Source of the DNA: an uncultured archaeon
GTDB lineage: Archaea; Aenigmatarchaeota; Aenigmatarchaeia; GW2011-AR5
Direction: 5' to 3'
Length of the DNA stretch: 64,000 bases
NCBI GenBank assembly: GCA_964373255.1
Contig: CAYJTG010000001.1
Location: forward strand, 82,768-146,767
This document shows, piece after piece, positions 43,808 to 63,412 of the stretch (its first letter is position 1; each line of letters starts with the position of its first letter). A model generated the notes under the pieces. The model saw only the letters and a program-made list of their open reading frames with translations. It did no database searches and was not told where the DNA came from. The translations under genes were made by a program, and so were the position numbers.

Positions 43808-43861
43808 ATATAATTATTTGCACGCAAGCCATATAAGTAGAATACACATGTGGTCTCGATA

Positions 43862-43968: not shown

Positions 43969-44122
43969 ACAAGAAATATAATATCTGATTCTTTTCTTGT
44001 TTAGCTATAATAGCGATAAAATTTTGTTTTGTCAATTGCCCGCCACCAAAGCGGCGGGCGTGAGTAGGACAAAGCAAGCCTGCTATTTAGATTTTAATTT
44101 TATGGAACTCATGTTTGTAAAT

Positions 44123-45522: not shown

Positions 45523-45953
45523 GAACTACCCCACATCCAGAGCTTTATCTTCTTGGTAAAAAACGCGTCCCTGTATCCTGACACGTAATAGTCAACGGTG
45601 ATGATGCTCGTGCCAGACGGCACGTTGCCCGCGCACACGTCCGTGCATACGTCTGTCTCGAGCGATATCGATGACGGCAGAAGCGCCTTCAGCTTCTCCT
45701 CAAGCGTTATTTCATTTCCAGAGAACGCCAGGAACCTCAGCTCGCCCGCCTGATCAAGATACTCCAGCGCCTCAAACCCCTGCTTCTTTATGAGGGCTGT
45801 TTTTGCCGACGCCGGGGCCTGCGTCGAGCTGAAGATAATGACCATCGAGACCATTATTAATGACACAGCTATGATGACCTCAAGCGTAAACAGGTAGCCC
45901 TTGTGATGATTATTTTTTAGTGCATTACCACGTCTGTACCACGATCTTTCCAT
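45519..45953 (-). CDS. Small pilin-like/membrane protein
   Basis: ORF with 4-nt overlap; hydrophobic N-terminal helix after a basic stretch. Confidence 0.4.
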   Translation of the reverse strand: MERSWYRRGNALKNNHHKGYLFTLEVIIAVSLIMVSMVIIFSSTQAPASAKTALIKKQGFEALEYLDQAGELRFLAFSGNEITLEEKLKALLPSSISLETDVCTDVCAGNVPSGTSIITVDYYVSGYRDAFFTKKIKLWMWGSS

Positions 45954-46767: not shown

Positions 46768-47399
46768 ACACTTTTCATCTCGACAGCGTCTGAAGTTGTG
46801 TTGCGCAGGAATGATATCCTCGTCAGTCCGCCTGATGTATGTCCGGAGTACGTCGCGTTGAGCCCTACGACGCACGTGGCGTTGAAATAAAGCCCCGACG
46901 TCTCTAACCTTATGGACGCGTTCTGGAACTTTGCGGTATATTCTGCATCAGCCAGCTTGTCGGGCAGGTTGACATCGAGCGAGCTTCTGGAAGCCGCGGG
47001 CGACCTGTACGAAGACGCGTAGAAAATTTTCTCAACGCCCCCACGCAGTGTAAGGCAAAGCTGGTCGATCTCGCTCTCCGCCGCGAACAGCTGAAAATCT
47101 TCGTGCAGCGATACGAACGTATTCACGATGACGAGTATGAAGAATATTACAAAGCCAAGCAGAAGCGTATGAGTCAGGAGCGTTGCCTGGCCTTTTCTAC
47201 AGAGCTTTGATTCTGTTTTTTTGCCTCTGTTGAAATTCTCAACAAAAGCGTCGACGTGAGAGGCATTGAAACAAACTGACGCACGGAGTGCGTCTATCTG
47301 TTCAGACAATGCCTCTAGCTGACCCATACGTCGATAGACGTATGGGTCTACGTCGACACTTTTGACATAGGTTTTTAACAGAGCTGGTTTTTTCATCAT
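46764..47399 (-). CDS. Pilin-like protein whose N-terminal ~45 codons are encoded by a family-C repeat copy; true start uncertain
   Basis: ATGA coupling to the upstream gene. Class-III-like RKG|QATLLTHTLLLGFVIFFILV segment after the repeat-derived region. Confidence 0.4.
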   Translation of the reverse strand: MMKKPALLKTYVKSVDVDPYVYRRMGQLEALSEQIDALRASVCFNASHVDAFVENFNRGKKTESKLCRKGQATLLTHTLLLGFVIFFILVIVNTFVSLHEDFQLFAAESEIDQLCLTLRGGVEKIFYASSYRSPAASRSSLDVNLPDKLADAEYTAKFQNASIRLETSGLYFNATCVVGLNATYSGHTSGGLTRISFLRNTTSDAVEMKSV

Positions 47400-47983
47400 A
47401 TCACGGCTGCAGATATATTGAATATATTTCCGATCCTTCCCTGGTTTCTGATAAGGAGCTTCACGGGCCCGTTCATGACGGTCTTGTTATGTATGTCGGC
47501 GTTCTGGTATTCGAGCCGCATGAAAAAGAAGAATGTGCCTGCAACGGGCAGCACAATATTCCCAAAGGTCCTTGAAATTAGCCTGAAGTCCTCTGCGTCC
47601 TTTGCGTGGGCGTCTATATTGTTCCACGTGCCGCTCGTAAATGCAAGAAGGAATCTGTTGTTGTACGCCTCCTGCGTCATGCGGAGCAAATACTCACTGG
47701 AAGAATAAGACGTGTTTATGTGGATATTCAGAAATTCCGACCCCGCGAACGCAAGGCCAAAAACCTTGCCGTTCCTCTCAGAGGATACGAACTTCTTGTC
47801 CATCGTTGGGAATGTTATCTCACTTGTCTGGCTTCCTGAAAAGTCTGTCCCGTTTGTGCGTATCGTGTCCGACTTGTCGCCGCCGATATTGAACGCAAAG
47901 TTCATGGATACGCTCCTCGCGTAAGCTGTGGGCAATAATATAGTCAATAGAAGAAACGCCAGAAGAAATACGCGTATATTCAT
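47396..47983 (-). CDS. Secreted protein with Sec-type signal peptide (MNIRVFLLAFLLLTILLPTAYA)
   Basis: ORF; first gene of the overlapping pilus-associated operon. Confidence 0.45.
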   Translation of the reverse strand: MNIRVFLLAFLLLTILLPTAYARSVSMNFAFNIGGDKSDTIRTNGTDFSGSQTSEITFPTMDKKFVSSERNGKVFGLAFAGSEFLNIHINTSYSSSEYLLRMTQEAYNNRFLLAFTSGTWNNIDAHAKDAEDFRLISRTFGNIVLPVAGTFFFFMRLEYQNADIHNKTVMNGPVKLLIRNQGRIGNIFNISAAVI

Positions 47984-48172
47984 GAGTCATTTATTCATTC
48001 GGAATAATAAATGGTTTTGCTTGTGCATTGAAAGATTGAATTCCATTAAAGTATGATCGTCAGCGTGAGCACCATCGCCTTCCTGGCAATGGTGCTAGCT
48101 GCGGTATACATCAAAAGACGTATATCGCTACGCTGACGATCATCATACGAATATGGAATTCAATCCAAAAAA

Positions 48173-48544
48173 TCACAGTATAACATTCCTTACGGCAAAC
48201 ACGTTGACGATGCGCTTATTTTCGAAATCGTATATAACAATCAGAGAATCCGCTGCGCCCTCAAAAACGACAAGATAATCCCCTGCAGCTGCGCCGCTGT
48301 ACACAACGGGCTGCTCGGCCTTCAGACTTGCCAGCTCTGTCTCATCAAGCAACCTCACGTTCACCGTGGCGTTTTCGAACGGCTTTATTTCAGCGTTCTT
48401 CAAAAGCTCTGTGGTTATAGATTGTTTGATATTTTTGCTGTCCACGCTGCCAGAAGTGCTGTAATTATTAAGTAAGACGGACACGACCAGCGCGGCAATA
48501 ACAATCACAATAACCGCAATGGTAAGCAATTTTCTGTTAAGCAT
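48173..48544 (-). CDS. Small membrane-anchored protein
   Basis: ORF with an N-terminal TM. Confidence 0.4.
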   Translation of the reverse strand: MLNRKLLTIAVIVIVIAALVVSVLLNNYSTSGSVDSKNIKQSITTELLKNAEIKPFENATVNVRLLDETELASLKAEQPVVYSGAAAGDYLVVFEGAADSLIVIYDFENKRIVNVFAVRNVIL

Positions 48545-49651: not shown

Positions 49652-50188
49652 ATGGCAGCACTTTTTCAAAAAGAAATGTATAGGATAATAGAATTTATTT
49701 TGGATAGTACATCAAAGACAACAAAGGTAAGGGAACTGGCAAGGCTGCTGAATCTAAGCCCTGCTCACGTCAGCAGAACTCTGAAAACTCTGGAGAGGCA
49801 CAAAATTATTAAAAATGGTTCTGTGGATTTGTCCAATCCTTACGTGAAGGCATTAAAGATCTTTTTTAATATACAAAAACTGACTGACAGCAATGTTATA
49901 AGGATATTAAAAAAAATAGAACCAGCAGGTGCGGGTATTTATGGCTCGTGGGCGAATGGGACGAATAACGAAACTAGTGATGTTGATATTTGGATTAAAG
50001 TAGAAAAAAAGGCAAACGAAACCAAAATAGCGGTTTTATCGAGTAAGATGAGAAAAGCCCTCCGTAGAAACATACAATTATTGGTGCTCACGCCAGAGAG
50101 GATAGGCAGGCTAAAAAGAGATGACCCGATTTTCTATTATTCGCTCGTCTTTGGCTCTATAAACATTTATGGTGAATCCCTTGAATGA
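49652..50188 (+). CDS. Minimal nucleotidyltransferase (MNT) antitoxin-like protein with N-terminal wHTH
   Basis: GIYGSWANGTNNETSDVDIW (GSx9-13DxD) nucleotidyltransferase motif. Confidence 0.6.
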   Translation: MAALFQKEMYRIIEFILDSTSKTTKVRELARLLNLSPAHVSRTLKTLERHKIIKNGSVDLSNPYVKALKIFFNIQKLTDSNVIRILKKIEPAGAGIYGSWANGTNNETSDVDIWIKVEKKANETKIAVLSSKMRKALRRNIQLLVLTPERIGRLKRDDPIFYYSLVFGSINIYGESLE

Positions 50189-50606
50189 ATTGGAAAAATG
50201 TTTTGAAAAAGGTTTGATAAGAAAAACGCTTCCATCAATAGAAAAGTCGTTGAAGGGTGTTAAGAAAGCTAAAAAATGGCTGGAAGAGGCTAAGAAGAAT
50301 TTTGAATTTGGTCTTTTTGACAGCTGTTTGGTTTCTTCCTATTCCGCTATGTTTCACGTCTCAAGGGCTTTGTTGATGAAGGATGGATTCAGGGAGAAAA
50401 GCCATTACTGTGTTGTAAGATACATTGAAGAAAAATATGTCAATACAAAAAAGCTAAACCATATTATTGTAGATCTATTGGACAGGTTCAGAGAGCTCCG
50501 GCATGAAGACCTCTATGAACTGGACTTCTTTGCAACAAAAGACGACGCAAAAGAAGCGATCAAGAATGCGGAGATCATCATAAAAGAAATAGAAAAGCTT
50601 ATTTGA
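50169..50606 (+). CDS. HEPN-domain protein (toxin partner of MNT)
   Basis: RELRHEDLY (Rx4-6H) HEPN motif; 20-nt overlap with the MNT gene. Confidence 0.6.
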   Translation: MVNPLNELEKCFEKGLIRKTLPSIEKSLKGVKKAKKWLEEAKKNFEFGLFDSCLVSSYSAMFHVSRALLMKDGFREKSHYCVVRYIEEKYVNTKKLNHIIVDLLDRFRELRHEDLYELDFFATKDDAKEAIKNAEIIIKEIEKLI

Positions 50607-51858: not shown

Positions 51859-52041
51859 ATGAAACCGCTAGAGGAGAAGTTAGATCTGATTGAAAAAGAA
51901 ATCAACGAATTGAAAATTATAGTTATGCGGCAAAATACACCAAAAACTAAGGTTTCTTTAAAAGGGTCTTTGAAAGGCCTTAAAATTGATGAGAACGAGA
52001 TAGAAAAGGTAAAAAAATCGATATTTAAATCTGGTGCATAA
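51859..52041 (+). CDS. Antitoxin-like small coiled-coil protein upstream of the PIN gene
   Basis: Overlaps the PIN gene start by 8 nt. Start at MKPLEEKL (the track gives 51844). Confidence 0.4.
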   Translation: MKPLEEKLDLIEKEINELKIIVMRQNTPKTKVSLKGSLKGLKIDENEIEKVKKSIFKSGA

Positions 52042-52432
52042 AATGATTTATGTTACCGACACGCATTCATTTCTTTGGTACTTATCAGGAGACAAAAGAC
52101 TTGGCAAAGGTGCAAAATCTGTTTTTGACAAAGCTGAGAACGGAGATGCAACTATAGTTATCCCAACCATAGTTCTTGCAGAATCTTTGTACATCCTTGA
52201 AAAAGAAAATGCTATTATGAAATTCAAGGACATCATAAAGAAGGTTGAAATTGGTTGGAACTATACAACAATTTCACTGGACATGCAAATCATTAAAAGA
52301 ATAGAAGACCTTACAAAGCTCTCCGAATTGCACGACAGAATAATAGTGGCATCAGCCGACATTCTGAATGCAGATCTGATAACAAAAGATGAAAACATAA
52401 AGAAAAGTGGTTACGTTAAAACGATCTGGTAA
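52034..52432 (+). CDS. vapC: PIN-domain ribonuclease toxin (VapC-like)
   Basis: Conserved acidic residues (VTDTH, LAES, HDRIIVASAD, TKD) at PIN positions; 132 aa. Confidence 0.65.
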   Translation: MHKMIYVTDTHSFLWYLSGDKRLGKGAKSVFDKAENGDATIVIPTIVLAESLYILEKENAIMKFKDIIKKVEIGWNYTTISLDMQIIKRIEDLTKLSELHDRIIVASADILNADLITKDENIKKSGYVKTIW

Positions 52433-52442
52433 GTCTGTTCTT

Positions 52443-55400
52443 TCACTTCCCGCCCAGCACCGCGACATTAATACCAAGCTTCTTCTCAATCGCCGCCAGC
52501 CTTGACTTCAGATCACTCATCTCTGACCTGAGCTCTGTGTTCTCCGCTTTGAGCTGCTCAACCTGTTGCTGCTGCTGTTGAATCGCGTTGACTAAGACTG
52601 GTGCGAAAAGATCATATTCTAGGCCCCAGAGTGTTCTATTCTCATCAGCCGGTTTATCAACAAGTTCTGGCATAATGGGATAGACATCTTGAGCCACTAA
52701 ACCAATGATTTCCTTGCCGGAGTTTTCCACCACAAGCGTATTGTTATCAAAATGGGAGTTTTGATAGAAATAGCGTTTTGGAGTGAGTTTCAATACTTCA
52801 GCGAGACCATAATTGAGCGGTTGTTGATTGCTCTTTACCCGACTATCGGAAGTACTCCACCATTGCCAAGCCCATCCTTGACCGCTTGCATCAGCTGTAG
52901 TTGGAAGCTCTAAACGATGCGTTGGGCTGGTCATCCCGATGCCGACGTAGCCGCTTGGTGTAATTTCCATCACATTAATGCCATCGGCGTCATTCCTAAT
53001 ATTGAAGTTGCCCACTCGGCCTGATACTCCGCTTCCTAGTGTCCGTACTCTCCATTGCTTACCACCTGAGCCTGTATTTGCAAATTCTATGCCTGTTTCA
53101 ATAGTATTTGCATCAGCAAGTTCAAGGAGCATATCTGGCGCCAGAACCCCGATGCCGACTTTGCCGGTTGTTCCAGTAATTACAATGCCTGCAACCCCTG
53201 CACCTCCCGAATTTGTGCTAAGAAGTATTTTGCCTCCATTTGTTCTGTAAACAATATCTCCGAGAACAGAACCTGTAGCATAAGCATCATTAAAGGTAGG
53301 AAGCGCGATATAACCCCGAACTGTCCCTGATGTTTTCAATACTATTGCTGGATATTGTGTTCCATCAAGAGTAATCCCATCACCTCCTGTGGTGGTGTAA
53401 ACACTGAGTTTAGTGCCTGGGTTTGTAATCCCGATGCCGACGTTGCCTTGGTTAAAATACACGCTTCCGCTGTTCGGGATGGCCCAGCTGTTGCCAGATA
53501 AGTCGGCACCGCGGAAGTAAACAGGCCTTCCTGCGGTACCATCAGTAATGTAGTGCGTTGGAGAGTACAGATAAGTCGTACTGATACTATTCCTAACGTA
53601 GAACCCCCACCCAGCTACCGAACCATCAACCACCAGGCCAGTTACACCATCAACTACCGTACTGCCTCCAATATAGTTGTCGAACCTGGAGGTGCCAACC
53701 ACATGTAACTTCGCCCCAGGCCCCGTCGTCCCGATGCCGACGTTGCCGTTTATGTTGGAAAGAATCGATGTTCTCGAATAAGTAGTTCCAGTATCTGGAA
53801 TGGCAGCGTACTGGGTGAGATCCCCGGTGTTTAATGATACAGACCCATAGTATTGAGCTGTCCATGGAACTCCGCCCAGCCAGCTAGCGCTTGCCTGTGC
53901 CCAAATAGACAGATAATTCGGGCCGAGACCGGTTCCGCTGCGGCGGACTACTTTTACATCTGCGATGGTATACTCGCTGCCCCCAGTTACTTCATGCTCA
54001 ATGTTATAAGTACTTTCTATGTCAGATCCGCCATTCCTGAACTGCACCGAGATCGTCTCTACCGAGTCGCCATGGTTTGGGTTTGTCGGAAATACGCTCC
54101 ATACAACGCCTGCCGCACTGTAAGCCCCATTAACAGTCAGCTCTCCAATCTTGATCCACTTGCCACTGCTGTCGCCGTTCGTATGGAGCCATGTCCAGTG
54201 CCCGCTTTGCATGAGAGTGCCGCTGCTTCCTGCCAGCCGGAATGAGCCTGCAACATCCAATTTACTCCCCGGATTCGTCGTCCCGATGCCGACGTTGCCG
54301 CTGGTTACCATCAACCCTTTCCCATTGACAATCTCAACGTAACTCTTGTCATAACCTGTCCCAACTCCTGTGCCCGCGCCTAGCTGAATTCCTGTATCAA
54401 AGTTTATCCTCAATTGCTGATAGGTATTTGCTGTCCACGCGCCGGACATCCGGTAAATTCCGTAGGCTGCGCTAGGCGTCACCCCTGAGACGTGCCAATA
54501 AATACCATAGGTCCCATCCGTGGCTACCGACCCTCCGCTAGGCTGTAACACAATGCTGTTAAGGTTTGTCCCGATATTCCCACTGACCTCAAGCTTATAG
54601 TTTGGTCCCGTCGTCCCGATGCCGACGTTGCCGCCGTTAAGAATTGTCATTTTTGTAGTCGGACTACTAGCAGCACCAGCAGTTGTTCCAGTTCCTGTGT
54701 CAAAATTGAAAGCTCCATCTACCATTCCAAGAATAACTGATTTATAGACACTATATTTATTTACCCATCCAGCGGCGGTGTATTGAGTATTTCCAGTTAT
54801 ATAACTATCGTAAGCATTTCTAAACAAAACTCCAAAAGCTCCAGCATGCATTTCACTATATGCTGCATTTGTAGCAGAAAAGCTCCCCGCACCAAGTTGA
54901 AGAAGTCCAGCAGGTGCCGTCGTCCCGATGCCGACGTTGCCGGTATTCATAATTCTCATTCTTTCTGTAATTTCATTTCCGCCAGATGCTTTTGTCCCGA
55001 AAAGTAAATCAACACCATAGTTACCAACCTGCTTGCCAACGATAGCTCCGCCAGCATAATTTTCCAGAGCATTGTGAAAGATTAATCCTTTTTTACCAAC
55101 CAAATCACCTATCGCATCATTTAGAGTTCCTAAAGCAGTTACTCTGCCAATATCCAGAGTGAACACAGGACTCGTCGTCCCGATGCCGACGTTGCCGTCA
55201 TTTTGAATCCTCATCCGTTCTCCGGCATTGAAAGTTGTACCAGTGAGGAATCGAATGGATGCTGCTTGCAAATTCTGGATGTTGAATTGATTATTGTCCC
55301 GCTCAGAGAAAACTACCCCCATCTGGTTTCCGCTATTAATCCAACGTATCCCCGAGGTTACTCCTACTCCATTAGCCGCAGATGGGTTGTCCACAACAAT

Positions 55401-58400
55401 CTGTTCAGACCGTCCAGCAACTGAGTTTTCAACCTCGAGTCTATCTACTGGACTCGTCGTCCCGATGCCGACGTTGCCGCTACTTAACACAACAACAGCT
55501 GGTGTCGAAAAGGTTGAACCCCCATTTGCCGTTGATGGAGTTATTTCAAATCCATTGTTGACATTAAATTGTCCACCTATAAGCCAGTTTCTTGTCGCAC
55601 CGTCTGTTTGAACAAATGTAAGTCTTGTATTGCCATCGGTTGTAGCTAATGTCAGTTTCGTAAGCGGACTCGTCGTCCCGATGCCGACGTTGCCTGTTGT
55701 TCTATCTAAATACATTTTCCCATCATCAAAATTAATATTATCATTATCACCTAATCTTAGAATAGAACCGCCACCCGAAGCATAAAGATAAGTATCATTA
55801 TCAATAACGATATTACCTCCCACAACGCTTAACTTTGCCGCCGGACTCGTCGTCCCGATGCCGACGTTGCCGTTGCCTAAAACTGTGAAACTCGTGTCAG
55901 CCGGCGCACCTGCATTGGCAAGAGATAAATAAAATCTTCCAGTCTGAACATTATTACCATTCTGAAGAATACCAAATTCTCCAAGCAAATTTTTCGTTGC
56001 TCCGCCGTCCGTGTAAGAACGGATTGAATATCCTGCGCCATTAGCAGAATTTGCGTGATAAGTTGATATATAACCATCTTGAACTTGTAATTTTGTATTT
56101 GGACTCGTCGTCCCGATGCCGACGTTGCCGTCGCCATTGATTCGAAACGCTGTATTCGGCATTCCAACACCGTAACGCACATTCAATAAAGCAAACCCAT
56201 TTCCAGATGATTCGCTTCCAATATCAACGACAGTGCCGGTGTATGATGCGCTTGAAGCGTACAGCCGTGCAGCCCCTTGACTCGTATCCGAAGTAAAGAC
56301 TTCGAATTTTCTAGCAGGCCCCGTCGTCCCGATGCCGACGTTGCCGCTTGTATCTATTCTCATTCTCTCAGTATTACCGCCAGTACCAAATCGGATAACT
56401 CCACCGGTACCAGCACTTGCTAATAAATTTAATCCGCCAGATGTAGTAGAGTCAGCTTCTAAAGTTACACTATCTTGAACATACAAACCAGATGTCGTAT
56501 AGGCACTTCCAAATGTATATAAATATGCATTAGCGGCATCTGACGCTATTTGTATAGATGCGAACGAATTATTCGTTGTTTTAGATAAATGCAATAATGA
56601 TGCAGGCCCCGTCGTCCCGATGCCGACGTTGCCTGAAGATGTGGCAAGAAGCGTCTGCCCAGAGACGTTGAGAAGGCTTGTCGCGATTGAAGAAGGCGAG
56701 AAGATGCCTGCAAGCAATGTGCCTGTTATGTTAGCGTCGCCCACGACAACCAGCTTCTGATTAGGCGCCGTCGTCCCGATGCCGACGTTGCCTTCACCTA
56801 ATGGGTCGCCAGCTGGGGTGATAGTAAGATAATCACTAGCACCAGCAGTCTGACCCCCTCCTACTTTAAATCGATAACCATCTGAATAGTCTAATCCCAT
56901 ATGCCAACCGACGACATCATTAGAATTCAATGCTACGGTGGCATCACCAGCCATCTTTCTTAATGTCAATATTTCTCCCGGCGCCGTCGTCCCGATGCCG
57001 ACGTTGCCTGAAGAGTCTATCCGCATCCGCTCAGTCAATACCGAAGGTGTAGCAGTGTTAGCAGTAAAAAAGGTCATTAATCCGGGGACACTGTTATCAG
57101 CGATTGTTCCTTCTGTTCTGAATGCTATCCTCGCAGCCAATTTATACCCCGATGTAGCACCTGAATATCCGTATCCATTTATTATTAAAGGATAATCTCC
57201 AGTGGTGATAACCAACGGAACTGCGTTTGTTCCTCTTGATTTGTACGAATCAATCGCCAAACCTTGAACATTATTATCAGCGGCAAACGCCGTAACCATA
57301 GACAGCGTGCTCGGGTCATCCGATGAAAGTGTAAGGCTTCGACCATGTGCAGTGCTTGATAATGTGCCAGTCTGTATATCAAGTTTTGATGTCGGTGTCG
57401 CCGTCCCGATGCCGACTCTTCCTGTATTATTATCGACAAACAAAACGTTGTTGCTCACAGTGAGGTTTCTTGTAACAACCAAGTTCTCAGGAAACGTATA
57501 AGCCGTTGTTCCGCCAAATGTACCGACAGTTATGTTAGCGGCAGGAAGTGATGTAGTCGCTGGCGGTATCGTCGGTGTGTTTGTCAGGTTGGAATAGTCT
57601 AATTTTATCTTGTTATTCAGTGTTGTTCCGTAATCGCCAGTTATGTTTTGTATCGGCAGGCTTGTAGTAGCAGGCGGTATCCCTGTTGTATTGGCATAAG
57701 CGATTGTAAGCTTATTGTTCCATGTCGATAAATCGCCTGTGATGTTTGCAGCAGGGAGCGACAGTCCGTTCAATGCTATCGTGACGGTGTTTCCTGACTT
57801 TGATGTCAGTATCGCGCCCAGCCCTGATATTGTTGTAAGCACCGAAGAGCCGCCAATCAAGACGTCTGTGCCAAAGTACCCGCGCCTCCATGTCCTCGAC
57901 GTGAAGCCTATGTCAAAGGTGTTGTCGAATACAGAAGGCGGCAGTATCGAGCCGTTGACAGAAAGATTATTGACATTCGTGTTCGTGAGGTTGCCCAGCA
58001 GGAATAGGTTCCTGTTTATAATAACGTCATTGTCAAACGTCCACACACCTGTCACTGTTTCTGTTACACCTTTTCTCGGCACGACAGACGTGTCTATTGC
58101 AACATCGTCTGCGTTTATGGTTATCCCTGTGCCCGCACCAACAGTTAATGTGCCCGAGCCGCCCAATGCGATAGACCCGCCACCGCTCAATCCAGAGCCT
58201 GCCGTGACCGTGAGCGATGAATTGACAAGGTCCTGATTAGCTACGCTGCTGTCTGTTAAATTAGCTCCAGACAGTCCGCTCACGCCGCCATACCCAGCGT
58301 CAGCTACGCAAATTGATGAAGAAGTGCCGTCTATTAATGTTACATTCCTTAAAAATTGTCCTACTGCGCATTGTTGTGAGAATCCGCCTGTCACGTTCGC

Positions 58401-61400
58401 TATTGGAATTGTTGATCCGCCTGCTCCCTGGTCAGCCACGCACTGCAAAGTACCATTGGCTGTCGTGCTCAATACTTGCCCTGATGAGCACTTTGTGGCG
58501 TGAAGCACAACGCCAGACGTGAAGTTCTGCAGGGCCGTGAACTTCTGGTTATCCCTGTTCAATAAAGCGGCATTGATGCTTAGCCGTGCATCTGCCAGTA
58601 TTCCGCTTGTTATGTTCGTAGCGTCTAGTGTTATCTTGTTGTTCCAGAATGACAGGTCGCCGGAAATGTTCTGCGCCAATAATGTGATCTTGTTGTTCCA
58701 GAATGACAGATCGCCGGAAATGTTCTGCGCCAATAATGTGATCTTGTTGTTCCAGAATGACAAGTCTCCGCTGATGTTCTGCGCCAGCAGTGTCAGCTTG
58801 TTGTTGCCGTTGCCCCAGACAATTGTCGGGTTCGGGTACGTTCCTGAGAGGTCGCCGCCTGATGACTGCCCCTCATTTATGTACGTCGTGTTGCCGTATC
58901 CGCTGTCAAAAAATACAGTGCCTGATGTTGTTATAGGATTAGGACTCAATATTATTCCCAGACCTTGGCTTATGCTCGTGACCGTGCCATTGCCCTGGCT
59001 GACGATCTGATTATCCACGTAAGTTTTCGTAGCCGCATCGCTTCCCTGCGTAGGCGTGCCAAGGTTGGTTATTCTTTTTGCCCCAAGGTTGATATTTTCC
59101 GAGAACGTCACGTTGCCTATGGTTATATTTGGAATTATGACAGATTTCCCTGTTAGTGTGCTCAGCACCGGCCCGATAGTGCCTTCTATGCTGATGCGCA
59201 GTTCAGACGTCGCCCCTAAATCCTGGCCGACCGCCCTCAGCCCGCGGTTGCCGAAAAGCTCTATGTATATTGCTGACGGCATATAGTTGCCGCCCCAGTT
59301 ATATCTGGGGTCATTCATGTAATTTGTGTCTAATCCGCCCCAGCCAGGATCGCCACCGTATGAAAACTCGATCTGTCTGGTGCGTACAGACTTGTCTACC
59401 GTAAGAACGCCGCCGCGGTCAGCCCCTGTTCTCTGCAGGCGCAGGCCTCCGTATATGGTCTGGTCGCCCACGCCTATTATAGGCGTATCCTGGTATTCGC
59501 TGATCACATTGCCGGAATTCATCTGGACAGCGTCAAAATAGCCAAAGCCTCCGCTTGAAGGGCCAATAGCCTTGAGCTCGATATGAATGACATCGCTCGG
59601 GTTCATCGTTGCCTTTGTCGTGAACTTGCCAGTGATAAGCGCCCAGTTTGTCGAGGTGCTGGACTGCTCTGTGAAACCAGACACGAGCGCTGTGCCTGTT
59701 ACATTTAATCTTACGCTTACCGTCCCGTTCCTCTTTGCCCACACGCCCACGCTGTACGTCTTGTTCGGCTGCAGTTTGTACGCGAGTATGTCCTGCGAGA
59801 TTTTTCCAAGATTGCCGCCGCCCGGGTCGAGCTTTAGCGCGTTGTAGCCTTGAAATACGTCTGTTCCAACAAAATAAGAAGCAGGCGCGTACTGGTAAGC
59901 AGTTCCGCTGTTCTGTATCCAGCCGTCGGCAATAGCAGAAATCTGGTCGCCGCTCCACGACGAGCCGCCGCTGAAGCTCTCGAATCCGCCATTCCTCACT
60001 AGATTGGAGAAATCCTGCTTGATCTTGCCGCCCGAGAACTGGAATTCCTGAGTGTTTGTGTCGAACTGCAGCGTCTGCGCGCTGCTGCCTGAACCGAACG
60101 TGATCGTAGGCGGCGATGCGCCAAGCACGCTCAAAGAGCCGTTCACTTCAACGCTCGCGCCGAATGAGATCGGATATGTCGCGCTTGCGTTGAACACTAT
60201 CGCCTTCTGCCTTGATGTATTTGTTGGCTGCGCCGGGTCGTAGAATGTTATAGCAGGCGAGCTTGCCGCTATCTGAAGCGGCGCGCTGAAAATAAATTTT
60301 CCGTTGCTGCCAAGCGTGGTATCGAATGTTATGTTCTCCCACCCGTCACTTGTTTTTCCAAGAATGATGGTGCCGTTTGACGTTGTTGCCGCAGGCGCAA
60401 GCACGGCATACAACACGCCTGATATGTTTACAGCGCCTATTACTTCAAGTGTGTTCTGCGGGGCTGTCGTCCCAATCCCAACCCGTCCCGTATTATTGTC
60501 AACGAACAGGATATTATTGCTCACGGTGAGATTTCTTGTAACAACAAGGTTTTGAGGAAATGTATAAGCCGTAGTGCCGCCAAAAGTCCCGGCTGTTATA
60601 TTTGCCGCGGGCAGCGTCGAGCCGCCTGCTCCCTGGTCTGATACGCACTGAATTGTTCCGTTTGCCGTTGTCGACAAGACTTGTCCGGCAGAGCACTTCG
60701 ATCCGTGGACAATGACACCTGAAGAAAGATTAGTTGTCCCCACGACCTGGAGCGTGAACAGCGGCGAAGTCGTCCCAACGCCGACGCTGCTTGTCCCATT
60801 GCTCACAAACAGGACGTTGTTGCTCACCGTGAGGTTCCTTCCGATCACGGTATTGCCAGACGCATCAACATTCGTGAATGACTGACTGCCGACATACAAG
60901 GTTCCTGTGACATTGGCATCGCCAGCTACAGTTAATGCTTGCGTCGGGTTAGTCGTTCCTATGCCGATGCGGCTGCTTGATTCATAAATAACAGAATTTC
61001 CCTGCGACGTTGACCCGGTCCATTTTGGTATGTAGTTTGACGAACCGGTTCCTGTAATATTTCCTGTCACAGCCACGCCTCCTACGTAGAGCGCGCCTGT
61101 GATATTTGCGTCGCCCGAGACCGTCAACTCGTGCGTAGGCAATATGCCAATGCCAACCCTCCTGTTCGCCGTGTCAACGATAAGTATCTGCGTGCCTGTG
61201 GAGTTAAAAATCCTAAAAGCACTTGTGGAGTCAGAAGCAGGTGTGAAGTTTGCTGTGCCCACGACCGCAAATGTCTGCTGCGGGCTCAATGTCCCTATTC
61301 CAATCCGGCCTGTATTGTTGTCGACAAAAAGAATATTATTGCTCACAGTGAGGTTTCTTGTAACAATCAAATTCTCTGGGAACGTGTATCCACCAGAGCC

Positions 61401-63170
61401 GAATGTGCCTGATGTGATGTTGGCGGCTGGCAGTGACGGGACATTAGATACTGACCCAGTTATGTTTGCGAATGATATTGATAATTTATTATTCCAGCTC
61501 GACAAGTCCCCGCTGATGTTCTGAGCTAATAATGTGATCTTGTTGTTCCAGAATGACAGGTCGCCGGAAATGTTCTGCGCCAGCAATGTCAGCTTGTTGT
61601 TAAGAAATGCGATGTTCAGAAGCTTCAATGCATCAACCATGTCTATAGTGGCGTTTGTGACGTTGCCAGCAGCTATCTTTGCTGTCGTGACCGATGAGTC
61701 TGCTAATTCTGAAGTGTCGATCTGGCCGGAAGGCAGCGAGACTGTCCCAGAAGAAACAGTCAATCCCGTGGATGTTATTGTGCCCGCTACGTCCAGCGCG
61801 GTTGACGGGTTCGTGGTAAGAATGCCCACGCGTGCTGTTCCGTTGCTCACGAACAGAACGTTGTTGCTCACCGTGAGGTTTCTTCCGACAATCAGGTTGC
61901 CGGCTGCGTCTACATTCGTGAATGATTGCTCACCAACGTAAAGCGTCCCTGTGACGTTGGCGTCGCCCACGACCACAAGCTTCTGGCCCGGGCTCGTCGT
62001 TCCTATTCCAATCCGGCCTGTATTGTTGTCGACAAAAAGAATATTATTGCTGACAGTGAGATTTCTTGTAACAATGAGGTTCACAGGAAAAGTAAAGCTT
62101 CCGGAGCCGAACGTACCTGATGTGACATTAGCAGCCGGAATTGTTCCTTGATACGAGCCGACTATTGTGCCGTATATAAACCCTGTGACGTTCGCGTCGC
62201 CCACGACCGTGAGCAGATGTGTAGGCGCCGTAGTATTGATGCCCACCCTTCCTTCTGTATCTATCGTTACCCTGTCTGCGTTGTTTGTGTAAAATCTCAG
62301 CTGGTTGTTTGTTATCGTGCCCAGGCTCGCTCCGACGCCTCCGCCTGACAGCGTCCCAAGATACACGCCAAACGACCGTGAGCTGTCATTCACTAAAAGC
62401 ATGGTTGAATTCGTAGATCCAAGAACTGCCAGTGCGTTAGCCGGCACAACGCCCACACCGATCCTTCTGTTTATGGTGTCAACAACAAGAACGCTCGCGC
62501 CCGTGGAGTTCTGGACCTGCAAAGCCGTCGTCGAATCCGTGAGCGGCCGCTGAACAATAGTGCCGTTGAACGTGGCTGTCCCGCCGACAAGATTAAACAG
62601 CGACACAGGCGAGGTCGTGTTTACGCCGACGTTCCCGCCAACCGTTATGACATTCATTTTTCCGCCGGCGAAATTCTGTATCTCCAGAATATTAGCTGTT
62701 TGTCCGGATGAGTGCGGCTTGATGACAAACGTCCCGGCTGCTGTAGCGTTGTCGGCAATATAATTAGTGAAGTTTGTCCTGAACGTGTAGGCCGTCGACC
62801 CGATAGTGTACCTCGGAATCAGCGTCTCGCCGTTGATGACAAGCTCCAGGAAATAGTCTTCGCTGAACGTGAGGTTTAACACCGTGACAGACCCGAGCAG
62901 CGTGGCGAAAAGCCCCTGGCTGCTTGTATTGAGTTTTTTTGTCTCCTGCCACAAAGGCAACCCGCCCGTCTCGGCGTTGTACATCTTGAATATGAACGTG
63001 TACTCGCCCGCGAGGGGTTCATCGTTTATGTTCGTCAGTTTTCCCTGCACGTTCAGAAGGTTTGGTATCGCCATGGAGGCTGCAGAAAATAATACGAGTA
63101 CGAACAGGATGAGTACGCCGATCCTCTTATTAAAAAAGCCGCTAAAGCCGGAAGAAATTAGCCGCATCAC
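52443..63170 (-). CDS. Giant secreted fibre/adhesin-like protein (3575 aa): N-terminal signal/TM, >25 'GNVGIGTT(S/A)P' repeats, tandem LTLLAQNISGDLSFWNNKIT repeats, C-terminal phage tail-fibre-type intramolecular chaperone domain (peptidase S74-like, SDSRVKSNQ...) ending in a coiled coil
   Basis: Single 10.7-kb ORF. Nucleotide repeat cgtcgtcccgatgccgacgttgcc recurs ~17 times between 52.9 and 57.4 kb, with diverged copies up to 62.6 kb. The C-terminal 130 aa match the endosialidase-chaperone consensus start (S-D-x-R-x-K) followed by a heptad coiled coil. Confidence 0.8.
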   Translation of the reverse strand: MMRLISSGFSGFFNKRIGVLILFVLVLFSAASMAIPNLLNVQGKLTNINDEPLAGEYTFIFKMYNAETGGLPLWQETKKLNTSSQGLFATLLGSVTVLNLTFSEDYFLELVINGETLIPRYTIGSTAYTFRTNFTNYIADNATAAGTFVIKPHSSGQTANILEIQNFAGGKMNVITVGGNVGVNTTSPVSLFNLVGGTATFNGTIVQRPLTDSTTALQVQNSTGASVLVVDTINRRIGVGVVPANALAVLGSTNSTMLLVNDSSRSFGVYLGTLSGGGVGASLGTITNNQLRFYTNNADRVTIDTEGRVGINTTAPTHLLTVVGDANVTGFIYGTIVGSYQGTIPAANVTSGTFGSGSFTFPVNLIVTRNLTVSNNILFVDNNTGRIGIGTTSPGQKLVVVGDANVTGTLYVGEQSFTNVDAAGNLIVGRNLTVSNNVLFVSNGTARVGILTTNPSTALDVAGTITSTGLTVSSGTVSLPSGQIDTSELADSSVTTAKIAAGNVTNATIDMVDALKLLNIAFLNNKLTLLAQNISGDLSFWNNKITLLAQNISGDLSSWNNKLSISFANITGSVSNVPSLPAANITSGTFGSGGYTFPENLIVTRNLTVSNNILFVDNNTGRIGIGTLSPQQTFAVVGTANFTPASDSTSAFRIFNSTGTQILIVDTANRRVGIGILPTHELTVSGDANITGALYVGGVAVTGNITGTGSSNYIPKWTGSTSQGNSVIYESSSRIGIGTTNPTQALTVAGDANVTGTLYVGSQSFTNVDASGNTVIGRNLTVSNNVLFVSNGTSSVGVGTTSPLFTLQVVGTTNLSSGVIVHGSKCSAGQVLSTTANGTIQCVSDQGAGGSTLPAANITAGTFGGTTAYTFPQNLVVTRNLTVSNNILFVDNNTGRVGIGTTAPQNTLEVIGAVNISGVLYAVLAPAATTSNGTIILGKTSDGWENITFDTTLGSNGKFIFSAPLQIAASSPAITFYDPAQPTNTSRQKAIVFNASATYPISFGASVEVNGSLSVLGASPPTITFGSGSSAQTLQFDTNTQEFQFSGGKIKQDFSNLVRNGGFESFSGGSSWSGDQISAIADGWIQNSGTAYQYAPASYFVGTDVFQGYNALKLDPGGGNLGKISQDILAYKLQPNKTYSVGVWAKRNGTVSVRLNVTGTALVSGFTEQSSTSTNWALITGKFTTKATMNPSDVIHIELKAIGPSSGGFGYFDAVQMNSGNVISEYQDTPIIGVGDQTIYGGLRLQRTGADRGGVLTVDKSVRTRQIEFSYGGDPGWGGLDTNYMNDPRYNWGGNYMPSAIYIELFGNRGLRAVGQDLGATSELRISIEGTIGPVLSTLTGKSVIIPNITIGNVTFSENINLGAKRITNLGTPTQGSDAATKTYVDNQIVSQGNGTVTSISQGLGIILSPNPITTSGTVFFDSGYGNTTYINEGQSSGGDLSGTYPNPTIVWGNGNNKLTLLAQNISGDLSFWNNKITLLAQNISGDLSFWNNKITLLAQNISGDLSFWNNKITLDATNITSGILADARLSINAALLNRDNQKFTALQNFTSGVVLHATKCSSGQVLSTTANGTLQCVADQGAGGSTIPIANVTGGFSQQCAVGQFLRNVTLIDGTSSSICVADAGYGGVSGLSGANLTDSSVANQDLVNSSLTVTAGSGLSGGGSIALGGSGTLTVGAGTGITINADDVAIDTSVVPRKGVTETVTGVWTFDNDVIINRNLFLLGNLTNTNVNNLSVNGSILPPSVFDNTFDIGFTSRTWRRGYFGTDVLIGGSSVLTTISGLGAILTSKSGNTVTIALNGLSLPAANITGDLSTWNNKLTIAYANTTGIPPATTSLPIQNITGDYGTTLNNKIKLDYSNLTNTPTIPPATTSLPAANITVGTFGGTTAYTFPENLVVTRNLTVSNNVLFVDNNTGRVGIGTATPTSKLDIQTGTLSSTAHGRSLTLSSDDPSTLSMVTAFAADNNVQGLAIDSYKSRGTNAVPLVITTGDYPLIINGYGYSGATSGYKLAARIAFRTEGTIADNSVPGLMTFFTANTATPSVLTERMRIDSSGNVGIGTTAPGEILTLRKMAGDATVALNSNDVVGWHMGLDYSDGYRFKVGGGQTAGASDYLTITPAGDPLGEGNVGIGTTAPNQKLVVVGDANITGTLLAGIFSPSSIATSLLNVSGQTLLATSSGNVGIGTTGPASLLHLSKTTNNSFASIQIASDAANAYLYTFGSAYTTSGLYVQDSVTLEADSTTSGGLNLLASAGTGGVIRFGTGGNTERMRIDTSGNVGIGTTGPARKFEVFTSDTSQGAARLYASSASYTGTVVDIGSESSGNGFALLNVRYGVGMPNTAFRINGDGNVGIGTTSPNTKLQVQDGYISTYHANSANGAGYSIRSYTDGGATKNLLGEFGILQNGNNVQTGRFYLSLANAGAPADTSFTVLGNGNVGIGTTSPAAKLSVVGGNIVIDNDTYLYASGGGSILRLGDNDNINFDDGKMYLDRTTGNVGIGTTSPLTKLTLATTDGNTRLTFVQTDGATRNWLIGGQFNVNNGFEITPSTANGGSTFSTPAVVVLSSGNVGIGTTSPVDRLEVENSVAGRSEQIVVDNPSAANGVGVTSGIRWINSGNQMGVVFSERDNNQFNIQNLQAASIRFLTGTTFNAGERMRIQNDGNVGIGTTSPVFTLDIGRVTALGTLNDAIGDLVGKKGLIFHNALENYAGGAIVGKQVGNYGVDLLFGTKASGGNEITERMRIMNTGNVGIGTTAPAGLLQLGAGSFSATNAAYSEMHAGAFGVLFRNAYDSYITGNTQYTAAGWVNKYSVYKSVILGMVDGAFNFDTGTGTTAGAASSPTTKMTILNGGNVGIGTTGPNYKLEVSGNIGTNLNSIVLQPSGGSVATDGTYGIYWHVSGVTPSAAYGIYRMSGAWTANTYQQLRINFDTGIQLGAGTGVGTGYDKSYVEIVNGKGLMVTSGNVGIGTTNPGSKLDVAGSFRLAGSSGTLMQSGHWTWLHTNGDSSGKWIKIGELTVNGAYSAAGVVWSVFPTNPNHGDSVETISVQFRNGGSDIESTYNIEHEVTGGSEYTIADVKVVRRSGTGLGPNYLSIWAQASASWLGGVPWTAQYYGSVSLNTGDLTQYAAIPDTGTTYSRTSILSNINGNVGIGTTGPGAKLHVVGTSRFDNYIGGSTVVDGVTGLVVDGSVAGWGFYVRNSISTTYLYSPTHYITDGTAGRPVYFRGADLSGNSWAIPNSGSVYFNQGNVGIGITNPGTKLSVYTTTGGDGITLDGTQYPAIVLKTSGTVRGYIALPTFNDAYATGSVLGDIVYRTNGGKILLSTNSGGAGVAGIVITGTTGKVGIGVLAPDMLLELADANTIETGIEFANTGSGGKQWRVRTLGSGVSGRVGNFNIRNDADGINVMEITPSGYVGIGMTSPTHRLELPTTADASGQGWAWQWWSTSDSRVKSNQQPLNYGLAEVLKLTPKRYFYQNSHFDNNTLVVENSGKEIIGLVAQDVYPIMPELVDKPADENRTLWGLEYDLFAPVLVNAIQQQQQQVEQLKAENTELRSEMSDLKSRLAAIEKKLGINVAVLGGK

Positions 63171-63412
63171 GACCCCCTCCTGCTGACTAATTTCATGTTG
63201 CCGAAGCTGACGATCTTTATCTTATTTTCAGCTTCGAGAACGTAGCAATATTTAGAAGCAGTGGCTATCGATATTCCGCACCCTTGGGCAATCTTGTGGA
63301 TAGGCGTGCCGTCTCCTTTCTTCACAACTTCAAGAATCTGCTCTTTTACGCCCTTCTTGTACACTCTTTCTGCCCGCTCTGACCACGGATACCGCTCTTT
63401 CTGTCCGACCAA
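63167..63412 (-). CDS. Small winged-HTH transcriptional regulator, translationally coupled to the giant gene
   Basis: GTPIHKIAQGCGISIATASKYCYVLEAENKI is HTH-like; ATGA overlap with the giant gene start. Confidence 0.5.
   Translation of the reverse strand: MVGQKERYPWSERAERVYKKGVKEQILEVVKKGDGTPIHKIAQGCGISIATASKYCYVLEAENKIKIVSFGNMKLVSRRGS

Follow-up and report, generated by a model that had tools for sequence, protein, structure and literature searches.

We found that the window, meaning the whole 64,000-nt stretch of archaeal DNA analyzed here, contains a giant ORF of 3575 codons, which probably encodes a secreted fiber built like mosaic adhesive trimer (MAT) adhesins and phage S74 fibers, and whose repeated motif DNA probably serves as a recombination junction for module shuffling. 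Its architecture, that of a chromosomal secreted fiber of an uncultured, probably DPANN-type archaeon, is largely shown.

Architecture of the giant fiber

The product of the ORF is identical to the NCBI-annotated protein. Our residue numbering starts at the GTG at 63170; the annotated protein of 3574 amino acids (aa) starts at the ATG at 63167, so 1 must be subtracted from the residue numbers given here to obtain the annotated numbering. The features that we identified are listed in the table.

Features of the fiber gene and its upstream neighbor in the window
Feature	Coordinates	Strand	Evidence
Upstream 81-aa ORF, possible small winged-helix protein	63167..63412	-	HTH matches under gathering scores
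Giant fiber ORF	52443..63170	-	ORF call and identity to NCBI-annotated protein
Sec-type signal peptide MRLISSGFSGFFNKRIGVLILFVLVLFSAASMA	63069..63167	-	Read from sequence; start of N-domain alignment
Conserved N-terminal all-beta domain, ~aa 35-135	62766..63068	-	Homologue search and AF2
Proximal stalk, N-x-S/T sequon-rich	57321..62765	-	Sequon count and self-BLAST
Two tandem copies of 18-aa unit (L/I)TLLAQNISGDLSFWNNK	61485..61592	-	37/54 nt matching
CBM_4_9 carbohydrate-binding domain, aa 1055-1190	59601..60008	-	Pfam, 30.9 bits versus cutoff of 25.9
Three tandem 18-aa units (L/I)TLLAQNISGDLSFWNNK	58635..58796	-	Repeat alignment
Distal modular region, aa 1951-3440, 16 unrelated modules	52851..57320	-	Motif, identity, and GC3 analyses; MAT-fiber match
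13 exact copies of 24-nt core GGCAACGTCGGCATCGGGACGACG (coding strand)	span 53724..57008	-	Exact matching
Core low coordinates, first seven	53724, 54276, 54609, 54918, 55173, 55455, 55671	-	Exact matching
Core low coordinates, last six	55848, 56106, 56322, 56610, 56769, 56985	-	Exact matching
Degenerate core GYVGIGMT/GKVGIGVL/GNVGIGIT	52929-52952, 53142-53165, 53424-53447 (in 52929..53447)	-	Motif search
Peptidase_S74 intramolecular chaperone/auto-processing domain	52659..52850	-	Pfam, motif, and fold match
C-terminal coiled coil of chaperone, aa 3526-3563	52482..52595	-	Coiled-coil family matches and AF2 helix

At its N terminus the protein has a signal peptide, in which n, h, and c regions and an A-x-A-like site can be read directly from the amino acids; in homologues, the conserved domain starts directly past this site. 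That domain, modeled by AF2 as all-beta with pLDDT of 88 to 98, is the presumed cell-proximal anchor of the fiber. A search with it yielded 3631 matches at E ≤ 1e-10, mostly located at protein N termini; these came from an exhaustive search, while a word-indexed search with the fiber N terminus returned one fragment only. Upstream, the stop codon of the 81-aa ORF overlaps the fiber ATG (TGATG), and an SD-like GGAGGGGG precedes the start. The earlier note had described a small HTH regulator translationally coupled to the fiber gene: the stop/start overlap is confirmed, but the HTH assignment is weak (HTH_24, 19.3 bits, below the cutoff of 21.9).

The proximal stalk (GC3 of 0.575) contains long units of ~60 aa that recur at 74 to 85% nucleotide identity in self-BLAST. 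The 5′ half contains the longest DNA repeats of the gene (189 nt at 80% and 116 nt at 85%) and is thus not simply more diverged, as it had been described earlier. Two arrays in the stalk had also been called perfect tandem triplicates of a 54-nt unit. The one at 58635 to 58796 is a perfect triplicate in protein, but its DNA copies match at 43, 44, and 53 of 54 nt; the other is a duplicate rather than a triplicate. The stalk contains 70 N-x-S/T sequons compared with 38.9 expected (z = +6.0), an enrichment higher than in all 120 homologues, which argues for adaptation to archaeal N-glycosylation; the stalk is presumably N-glycosylated. The distal region, by contrast, has 0.27 of the expected sequons versus 0.74 to 1.15 in the same homologues. 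Such depletion, a point against the module-exchange reading below, speaks for a long stay in a glycosylating archaeon rather than for recent import.

Each of the 16 distal modules is 45 to 176 aa long and opens with a GNVGIGTT-type capping loop; in the whole fiber we confirmed the presence of at least 25 units of the (G/S)x(V/I)G(I/V)G type. GC3 is 0.42 for the distal region overall and ranges from 0.19 to 0.56 by module (chi2 = 105, p = 3e-15). A search for homologues of the long module at aa 2958 to 3150 returned the motif alone and no homologue of the module body. The AF2 monomer model of the rod is of low confidence (pLDDT of ~43).

At the C terminus, Peptidase_S74 (PF13884) matches aa 3441 to 3504 of the whole protein with 35.9 bits, where the gathering score is 22, over profile positions 1 to 57 of 58; the last 159 aa searched alone score 41.9 bits against the same cutoff. 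An alignment of 14 sequences shows the S, D, and K of the motif S3441-D-S-R-V-K3446 to be invariant, and Ser3441 is the predicted cleavage site. The chaperone part of the AF2 model (pLDDT of 80 to 96) has as its top PDB match in Foldseek the MyRF ICA domain (7DC3; probability of 1.00, TM of 0.58 to 0.62), followed by 3GW6 and 3GUD, albeit with modest E values (4e-3). Profile, motif, and fold all agree with the S74 assignment made in the earlier note, as do the coiled-coil family matches and the predicted long helix (pLDDT of ~90) with the coiled coil that it placed after this domain.

Taken in order along the chain, these features suggest how the fiber may work. The chain would be exported by its signal peptide, and the N-terminal beta-sandwich would keep the fiber at the cell. 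The ~1900-aa stalk, presumably N-glycosylated and carrying the CBM_4_9 domain, would project the fiber outward, and the distal 1500 aa would form a beta-helical rod whose 16 modules all begin with a GNVGIGTTxP capping loop. The S74 domain would template folding of the trimer (the fiber is presumably trimeric) and then cleave itself at Ser3441; such cleavage may expose a tip that binds the surface of a partner or host cell, the ligand probably being a glycan.

The 24-nt core

The near invariance of a 24-mer encoding GNVGIGTT, reported earlier for the distal half of the gene, is confirmed: besides the 13 exact copies there are two with 3 mismatches, where none are expected. All 15 are on one strand, as direct repeats in one reading frame. 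The probability that all 13 exact copies use the same codons is ~1e-41; all eight codons end in G or C, and they belong to the minority codons of the gene's distal half. Identity among the copies is 100% over exactly eight codons and drops to ~30%, the random level, from the next codon. The synonymous identity of the invariant Pro two codons 3′ of the core is just 0.31, and where Pro or Leu is invariant 2 to 6 codons from the core, synonymous sites likewise agree only at the random level. The distal 3′ units have in common only a core of ~24 to 32 nt, with a few pairs reaching identity over 29 to 35 nt. GC3 change-points in the gene lie 0 to 13 codons from cores (p = 0.003).

The exact 24-mer is not confined to this archaeon. 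We found it in at least 240 contigs, no fewer than 120 of them viral and no fewer than 120 from genomes, in up to 15 copies per gene; its carriers include phages, NCLDV-type viruses, CPR bacteria, and DPANN and methanogen MAGs, among others. The GC content of these contigs ranges from 0.28 to 0.65, and flank GC3 averages 0.41. Third positions in the core flanks are random across 226 loci, showing that the loci are not redundant copies. Because the 24-mer is common to hundreds of unrelated genomes, we regard it as a conserved junction sequence rather than as part of a local gradient within one gene. Under a null model based on local codon usage at each site, we observed 4 exact copies compared with 0.004 expected, and 29 sites within two codons of an exact match compared with 0.67 expected. 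A null model based on the product of codon frequencies was dropped, since differences in GC between genomes made its distribution bimodal.

DNA similarity between the window gene and 356 other loci is limited to 29 to 65 nt around cores: 4697 of 4700 DNA matches fall on cores and none in the S74 region. Horizontal transfer of the whole gene was rejected on this basis. Strong homogeneity is specific to the core or its 1-mismatch derivatives; other loci have 21 distinct encodings at 22 sites. The idea that each multicopy gene homogenizes a version of its own therefore holds only in part, although AT-rich phages do have a looser local consensus. We found no mention of the peptide strings of the motif in the open-access literature, and a linker shared across the domains of life seems not to have been described so far.

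Probable module exchange and competing explanations

Loci related to one another provide evidence for exchange. Among them, homology blocks end no more than 8 nt from a core in 32% of cases versus 5% for random positions, an excess to which BLAST extension into the identical 24-mer could contribute in part. Cassettes common to loci L059, L052, and L091 are 96 to 100% identical inside and 11 to 32% identical just outside the cores, and modules that adjoin in one contig are 3.2 kb apart in another. In three syntenic phages, modules have been shuffled with the motif at their boundaries. The junction role of the core is seen in these relatives; for the window gene we infer it, as its closest relatives in a search of 5.8 billion proteins are 33 to 36% identical and, with none above 36%, no recombinant of the gene itself is seen. 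Sharing of module bodies between viruses and cells is weak (~80% over at most 146 nt), leaving the shared core as the sole strong link for those pairs.

We suggest that the 24 nt encoding GNVGIGTT probably act as a homologous-recombination junction, and that the modules it flanks would be swapped, duplicated, or deleted as cassettes that keep the reading frame. Crossovers and heteroduplex repair, recurring inside this junction, could hold its synonymous sites identical while module bodies diverge beyond recognition, and a junction sequence that is the same in many lineages would keep the fiber genes of distant organisms recombination compatible. At 24 nt, however, the junction is near the shortest length at which homologous recombination is efficient. 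Recombination alone offers no obvious reason for one master sequence to persist across distant hosts. More tentatively, and with slightly less than an even chance of being right, GGCAACGTCGGCATCGGGACGACG may be a universal in-frame connector by which receptor-binding cassettes circulate across the three domains of life, its G/C third positions being the footprint of GC-biased repair. The carriers under this broader proposal, to be read with the same reserve, would be phages, giant viruses of eukaryotes, CPR and predatory bacteria, and DPANN and methanogenic archaea.

Synonymous sites frozen across hosts of very different codon usage could also mean that the 24-mer is kept for a function of the nucleic acid itself, either as a folding-pause hairpin in mRNA or single-stranded DNA or as a site for a regulator or small RNA. 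The coding-strand core does form a 5-bp hairpin (dG of −6.2, z of −2.9) that folds better than 198 of 200 shuffles. However, AT-rich phages encode the same peptide motif by a different, hairpin-free, near-uniform sequence; the hairpin is thus not needed for the protein, and we rejected the hairpin idea as not general across motif-encoding loci. Nor does such a function predict homology breakpoints at cores, and it is difficult to imagine one pause signal that acts in the same way in bacteria, in archaea, and in the giant viruses of eukaryotes. We consider an explanation of this kind unlikely.

Another possibility is that the fiber belongs to a virus or tailocin within an integrated element. 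Its C terminus matches ~25 PHROG tail families, its PHROG matches include phrog_9942 (1.4e-61) and phrog_18345 (4.7e-34), it has an S74 domain, and its best full-length matches are phage fibers; toxin-antitoxin-like genes (PIN, HEPN/NTase) lie directly downstream. Against this, the protein starts with a signal peptide, its N-domain is present in 8 of 120 cellular loci but in none of 236 viral loci, and its stalk sequon enrichment exceeds that of all 120 homologues. The 30 neighboring ORFs encode, according to Pfam, FtsZ, aminoacyl-tRNA synthetase, GatA/B, archaeal pilins, HerA, subtilase, and toxin-antitoxin proteins, and no capsid, portal, terminase, baseplate, or integrase gene was found among the ORFs scanned in the 64-kb window, which covers 830 nt upstream of the gene. 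The setting is that of a cellular archaeal chromosome, and the fiber gene is chromosomal, in a cellular archaeal genome and outside any provirus. Among the possibilities left standing by the earlier note, a host-encoded surface fiber is upheld, whereas a domesticated or viral tail fiber is not favored; a tail fiber in an integrated element seems quite improbable.

Site-specific switching of fiber tips is known from phages Mu and P1 and from the R64 shufflon, and the precise breakpoints at cores would suit a dedicated shufflon- or invertase-like recombinase acting on them. Direct in-frame repeats, though, would yield deletions rather than inversions, the 24-mer does not show the two-arm symmetry that recombinase sites typically have, and one crossover sits at a variable point within the core. 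No recombinase adjoins the window gene, and among 240 loci with cores no nonfiber family is present in more than 6%. We find this explanation highly improbable. As for a diversity-generating retroelement, no reverse transcriptase was found among the window ORFs scanned, and the constancy of the A positions in the core speaks against its being the variable region of such an element.

The earlier note had read the 3′ half of the gene as the product of ongoing gene conversion or recent expansion, in which case the 24-mer would be merely the best-preserved part of young duplicates. Thirteen identical copies in one gene, and the few longer identical pairs, are what such an array might leave. This reading is contradicted by flanks that are random directly outside the eight-codon core, also at the synonymous positions of the Pro and Leu codons that are invariant in protein, by modules that differ in length, sequence, and GC3, by the one long module that lacks any homologue outside the motif, and by the occurrence of the 24-mer in hundreds of unrelated genomes; it retains a very slim chance. 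That core conservation is an artefact of codon bias, GC heterogeneity, or database redundancy, as the G/C-ending codons and the GC-confounded product null might suggest, is almost certainly wrong in view of the local-usage null, the flank GC3, the random flank third positions, and the minority status of the core codons.

Recognition of hosts or prey by fibers determines who infects, parasitizes, or eats whom among microbes. If the cores are indeed junctions for in-frame cassette exchange among very different genomes, this would explain quick retargeting of ultrasmall episymbionts (DPANN, CPR), predators, and their viruses; a 24-mer search would offer a simple handle to find and delimit receptor-binding cassettes in metagenomes, and the core itself a natural standard connector for engineering fibers of new specificity. 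The core is also a rare case in which synonymous sites stay fixed from one domain of life to another and, as such, is relevant to the part that recombination hotspots and biased gene conversion play in shaping coding sequence.

Comparison with known fibers and exchange systems

Judged by sequence matches, the closest characterized relatives are the Bdellovibrio MAT fibers (PDB 8OND and 8OML), an S74 subgroup for which the same architecture and capping-loop motif have been described (Caulton et al. 2024, PMC10769870). The fiber repeat region matches 8OND (E = 1.4e-9) and 8OML (E = 4.5e-5) in phmmer via its capping-loop motifs, and its VGIGTTxPxxKL-type motifs, numbering at least 25, are one residue longer than the published MAT consensus, V-G-G/N-pi-x-x-P-x-x-x-L (PMC10769870). 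Both kinds of fiber have a signal peptide directly followed by a beta-rich domain (a likeness of position and beta content alone), a long beta-helical rod with V-G-x-G...P...L capping loops, and a C-terminal S74 domain with SDxxxK. The fiber described here differs in being archaeal, in its sequon-rich stalk and CBM_4_9 domain, in its size (3.5 times that of a typical MAT protein of ~1000 aa), and in being a single gene in the window, whereas MAT proteins are a family of 21. The MAT study treats tip swapping rather than a junction at the nucleotide level (PMC10769870).

S74 spikes and fibers of phages (K1F endosialidase, 3GW6; T5 pb1, 4UW8; GA-1, 3GUD) likewise end in a C-terminal Ser-Lys chaperone, and the ICA domain of eukaryotic MyRF (7DC3) is an intramolecular chaperone with a Ser-Lys dyad, as in the archaeal fiber. 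Unlike the phage proteins, the archaeal fiber is encoded outside a virion gene set and has an export signal and a cell-type N-domain.

With regard to exchange, the T-even long tail fiber/gp38 adhesins recombine in or near short glycine-rich motifs (Tetart et al. 1996, 1998; Trojet et al. 2011, PMC3157838), which are conserved, structurally essential, and located between hypervariable segments (PMC3157838). Breakpoints at a conserved motif are thus common to these adhesins and to core-bearing fiber genes, but the core is one 24-nt sequence frozen at all synonymous sites and is not restricted to one phage subfamily. The R64 Rci/shufflon (sfx), Mu Gin, and P1 Cin systems resemble the core system in having short repeats within adhesin or fiber coding sequence and in exchanging variable C-terminal parts; they rely on inverted sites and a linked recombinase, while cores are direct and in frame, with no linked enzyme found.

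Relatives of the window protein at E ≤ 1e-10 number at least 2823. "Tail fiber domain-containing proteins" of Patescibacteria and uncultured organisms (1.4 to 2.7 kaa) share its repeat motif, S74 end, and large size. The window protein is longer, is at most 36% identical to these Patescibacteria-type fibers, and combines their distal region with a presumably glycosylated stalk of archaeal type. The protein is known in kind, as a MAT/S74 fiber, and the archaeal form extends that kind to a giant fiber that is, as its sequons suggest, partly glycan shielded.

Architecture and chromosomal setting of the giant fiber

The giant fiber gene is a single ORF (see table) whose product is identical to an NCBI-annotated protein (148,531-nt contig) and is the sole member of its 90% cluster. 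We number residues from the GTG at 63170 (3575 codons); the database protein begins at the ATG one codon later (3574 aa), and 1 must be subtracted to match it. The N-terminus reads in sequence as a Sec-type signal peptide, directly followed by an all-β domain of ~100 aa. At E ≤ 1e-10 we found 3631 relatives of this domain, mostly N-terminal, in proteins of 150 to 5659 aa; the named ones are "[archaeon]" proteins plus one from Aenigmatarchaeota. Among the fetched loci, it was found in 8 of 120 cellular contigs versus 0 of 236 viral contigs, which makes it a marker of the cell-anchored version of these fibers.

A regular-expression scan counted 25 (G/S)x(V/I)G(I/V)G units, nine at aa 179-895 and 16 at aa 2055-3407, confirming the 25 or more GNVGIGTT-type units of an earlier note made from the sequence alone. 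The C-terminal Peptidase_S74 domain with a coiled coil after it, also proposed there, was recovered by profile search. Alignment to 13 homologous C-termini shows S3441, D3442, and K3446 of the SDxxxK motif to be invariant. AlphaFold modeled the chaperone part at pLDDT 80-96, and the model's top PDB matches were the MyRF ICA domain (7DC3; probability 1.00), the endosialidase chaperone 3GW6, and 3GUD. PHROG tail-fiber families also matched strongly (e.g., phrog_9942 at 1.4e-61). We consider the fiber architecture and the S74 active-site motif and fold established. A stalk unit, (H)GSKCSAGQVLSTTANGT(I/L)QCV(S/A)DQGAGGS, occurs twice and holds four of the six cysteines of the protein; the two copies may be disulfide-stapled knots.

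The gene is composed of two unlike parts that meet near 57320. The first ~1950 aa contain 70 N-x-S/T sequons versus 38.9 expected (z = +6.0; GC3, 0.575), and the last ~1625 aa contain 6 versus 22.4 expected (z = −4.1; GC3, 0.42). The observed/expected ratios, 1.80 in the stalk and 0.27 in the distal part, are outliers in opposite directions when set against 120 bacterial and phage homologues (0.74 to 1.15). Sequon counts thus suggest that glycans shield the stalk and are kept off the distal rod, and existence in an N-glycosylating archaeon may have shaped both halves.

The window encodes FtsZ, a class II aaRS, GatA/GatB, a subtilase, two HerA-type ATPases, and an archaeal type IV pilin (Pilin_N) cluster at 40.5-44 kb. 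The earlier note had advised a check of neighboring contigs for viral structural genes; in the window, which reaches only 830 nt upstream of the fiber gene, no capsid, portal, terminase, baseplate, or integrase gene was found. The window is a cellular archaeal chromosome, and its gene content argues that the fiber is host-encoded. Directly upstream, the TGA of an 81-aa ORF overlaps the fiber ATG (TGATG), with GGAGGGGG just 5′. Its description as a small coupled HTH regulator holds for the stop/start overlap but is weak for the HTH, since its winged-helix matches fall below threshold (HTH_24, 19.3 bits versus 21.9).

Several other features of the window deserve mention. A run of small ORFs carries class III signal peptides (archaeal type IV pilin type) of the form MKGVSPLIATVLL. 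Pilin_N was confirmed for two of these ORFs, and the run, additional membrane ORFs, and a DUF7287-like protein together make up a pilus/surface-structure cluster ~4 kb from the fiber gene. A 59-nt tRNA match may represent an atypical or split archaeal tRNA. Two small overlapping ORFs, by eye an antitoxin/RelE-type toxin pair, lie within the lowest-GC stretch of the window (0.36; trough at 28-30 kb).

Features of the window, the giant fiber protein, and related loci
Feature	Position	Strand	Remarks
Giant fiber ORF	52443-63170	-	Single ORF
CBM_4_9	aa 1055-1190	-	Pfam 30.9 bits (cutoff 25.9)
Peptidase_S74	aa 3441-3504	-	Pfam 35.9 bits (cutoff 22)
Coiled coil	C-terminal of Peptidase_S74 domain	-	
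Stalk Cys unit	60616-60698 (aa 825-851)		
Stalk Cys unit	58411-58493 (aa 1560-1586)		
PIN-domain gene	52034-52432	+	Toxin-antitoxin-like; convergent, end 10 nt from fiber stop codon
wHTH-nucleotidyltransferase + HEPN pair	49652-50606	+	Toxin-antitoxin-like; directly downstream of fiber gene
Small-ORF run	40548-48544	-	Pilin signal peptides
Overlapping ORF pair	28019-28491	+	
tRNA match	24148-24206	-	Rfam 35.2 bits (cutoff 29); no ARAGORN call
Fiber gene, L358	6001-12819		Syntenic phage-like contig, ~65 kb, with GroEL/ES
Fiber gene, L359	6001-13998		As L358
Fiber gene, L360	6001-13368		As L358
Tandem giant genes, L361	1-2994; 3001-11778		144-kb contig; >1625 aa and 2925 aa

A frozen 24-mer at module junctions

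The 24-mer coding for GNVGIGTT, recognized earlier as near-invariant, is present in 13 exact copies at 53724-57008 and two more with three mismatches, with none expected by chance. Its eight codons are identical in 78 of 78 pairs of these 13 units, and the adjoining codons show ~30% nucleotide identity. Synonymous identity is 0.31 at the invariant Pro two codons 3′ of the core and 0.15 at a near-invariant Leu; the ERMRI motif 5′ of several units also varies in its codons. The codons used in the core are minority choices in the distal half, and the probability that all eight would be common to all 13 copies is ~1e-41.

The earlier note had read this uniformity as a gradient left by gene conversion or recent 3′ expansion. 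Instead, the 24-mer is a sharply bounded island, and the longest DNA repeats lie not in the supposedly more homogeneous 3′ half but in the 5′ half (189 nt at 80%, 116 nt at 85%). Random flanks and the 5′ location of these repeats rule out recent duplication in the 3′ half, as well as conversion there over long tracts. As for the "perfect triplicate" of 54 nt, its units are identical in protein but match at 43, 44, and 53 of 54 nt in DNA; the second array has two copies only, matching at 37 of 54 nt.

GC3 of the 17 core-delimited distal segments ranges from 0.19 to 0.56 (χ² = 105, p = 3e-15; four-fold sites, p = 2e-5), and the six strongest change-points fall 12, 2, 0, 2, 13, and 4 codons from a core (random mean, 21 codons; p = 0.003). 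Such compositional mosaicism is the signature expected if modules of different history were joined at the cores. No relatives of the module bodies were detectable, the 176-aa module matching others in motif only, and we observed no recombinant of the window gene itself, the closest match to its distal half being 33-36% identical. On the coding strand, each core at 53724-57008 contains a 5-bp inverted repeat (CGTCG-N9-CGACG) and as single-stranded DNA folds at a ΔG of −6.2 kcal/mol (z, −2.9), beating 198 of 200 shuffles; the AT-rich junction version of L358-L360 has no such hairpin.

Distribution of the core and shuffling of cassettes

Exact-match scans found the 24-mer in at least 120 viral and at least 120 genome contigs (at least 174 and at least 200 exact sites, respectively, among the matches listed). 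Many of the 80 genome records listed are Patescibacteria and 10 are archaeal (Woese-, Pace-, Aenigmat-, and Nanoarchaeota, Methanosarcinales, and Methanoregula); Elusimicrobia, Omnitrophica, Bdellovibrionales, Planctomycetales, Acidobacteria, and proteobacterial MAGs are also among the matches listed. An NCLDV major capsid protein is encoded on at least 11 core-bearing loci and an AEP C962R-type primase on at least seven; L026, L092, L005, and L069 are among the viral loci concerned, and at least two contigs are labeled giant-virus MAGs. Core-bearing contigs with these capsid or primase genes are giant viruses of eukaryotes. Another contig, L361, carries two giant genes in tandem, the second with core-like junctions (zero to three mismatches) and no S74 match on record.

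Core-bearing loci span a GC content of 0.28 to 0.65. Flank third positions are essentially random across 226 loci (0.13 bits at the Pro codon), and the loci are thus not redundant copies; flank GC3 averages 0.41, versus eight of eight G/C-ending codons in the core. An unbiased, codon-degenerate scan yielded 244 GNVGIGTT sites with >200 distinct encodings. Compared with a null model based on the local codon usage of each site (2000 simulations), exact cores numbered 4 versus 0.004 expected, and sites within two codon differences numbered 29 versus 0.67 expected (maximum in any run, 6). Strong uniformity within a gene (15 of 17 sites in L020, 5 of 5 in both L023 and L207, 13 of 24 in L141) is specific to the master sequence or its one-mismatch derivatives; other genes had 21 distinct encodings at 22 sites. 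When the window gene was compared with 356 fiber loci, 4697 of 4700 BLASTN matches lay on cores and none in the S74 region, though this is the most conserved protein domain of the family.

In relatives, cassette boundaries fall at cores. In an all-against-all comparison to which 27 loci contributed, 32% of the ends of internal homology blocks came to lie 8 nt or less from a core, versus 5% for random positions; BLAST extension into an identical 24-mer may inflate the former value. In L059, the segment between cores 3447 and 3836 matches L091:4734-5123 at ~90%, and that between cores 3813 and 4121 matches L091:1221-1529 (97%) and L052:423-731 (98%); a pair of modules adjacent in one contig is thus separated by 3.2 kb in another. 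Ungapped identity among these three loci is 0.96-1.00 within cassettes and 0.11-0.32 just beyond the flanking cores, and one switch point lies inside the core itself. The three best protein matches to the distal half, of 2272, 2665, and 2455 aa, are orthologous fiber genes (L358-L360) in which only the two ends are collinear. Their internal modules (200-364 nt, 86-98% identity) are extensively reshuffled among one another, with offsets from −2223 up to +4590 nt; a GNVGIGTT site lies 0-9 nt from most of the module ends. The encoding of this motif in the AT-rich phages is near-uniform and their own, GGYAACGTAGGTATWGGTACTACT. Sharing of module bodies between viruses and cells is weak (~80% over at most 146 nt). 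No non-fiber gene family recurs beside core-bearing genes, and hence nothing points to a dedicated enzyme.

Proposed mechanism and relation to known fibers

We propose that the fiber is exported and anchored at the cell by its N-terminus, with a glycosylated stalk; the S74 domain would template trimerization and then cleave itself off at S3441, and the fiber would bind a surface glycan of a partner cell. The cores would serve in-frame homologous recombination, whether inside a single gene, among paralogues, or from genome to genome; each would supply perfect homology over ~24 nt, a length near the minimal efficient processing segment of bacterial recombination. Heteroduplexes repeatedly formed and repaired there might homogenize the core, and its all-G/C third positions would be explained if this repair is GC-biased. 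Such a mechanism would not fully account for one master sequence persisting in hosts so distant from each other.

The repeat region matches solved Bdellovibrio fibers, 8OND (Bd2133; E = 1.4e-9) and 8OML, via ERMRIxxxGN(V/L)G(I/L)GTxxPxxKLxV. These mosaic adhesive trimer (MAT) proteins have a signal peptide, then a conserved β-rich domain, a trimeric β-helix rod with recurring capping loops (V-G-G/N-π-x-x-P-x-x-x-L), and an S74 chaperone or other tip at the end; they are displayed on the surface and bind glycans (PMC10769870). The plan of the giant fiber is the same, making it an unusually large archaeal member of a kind already known, the MAT-like/S74 fibers, widely annotated in databases as "tail fiber domain-containing protein." Searches of open-access full-text literature with peptide strings returned no earlier description of the junction at the nucleotide level, on which the MAT paper is silent (PMC10769870). 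A single 24-nt junction, frozen at synonymous sites and lying at cassette boundaries in fiber genes of cells and viruses across domains, is classed here as a variant of conserved-motif-mediated fiber shuffling.
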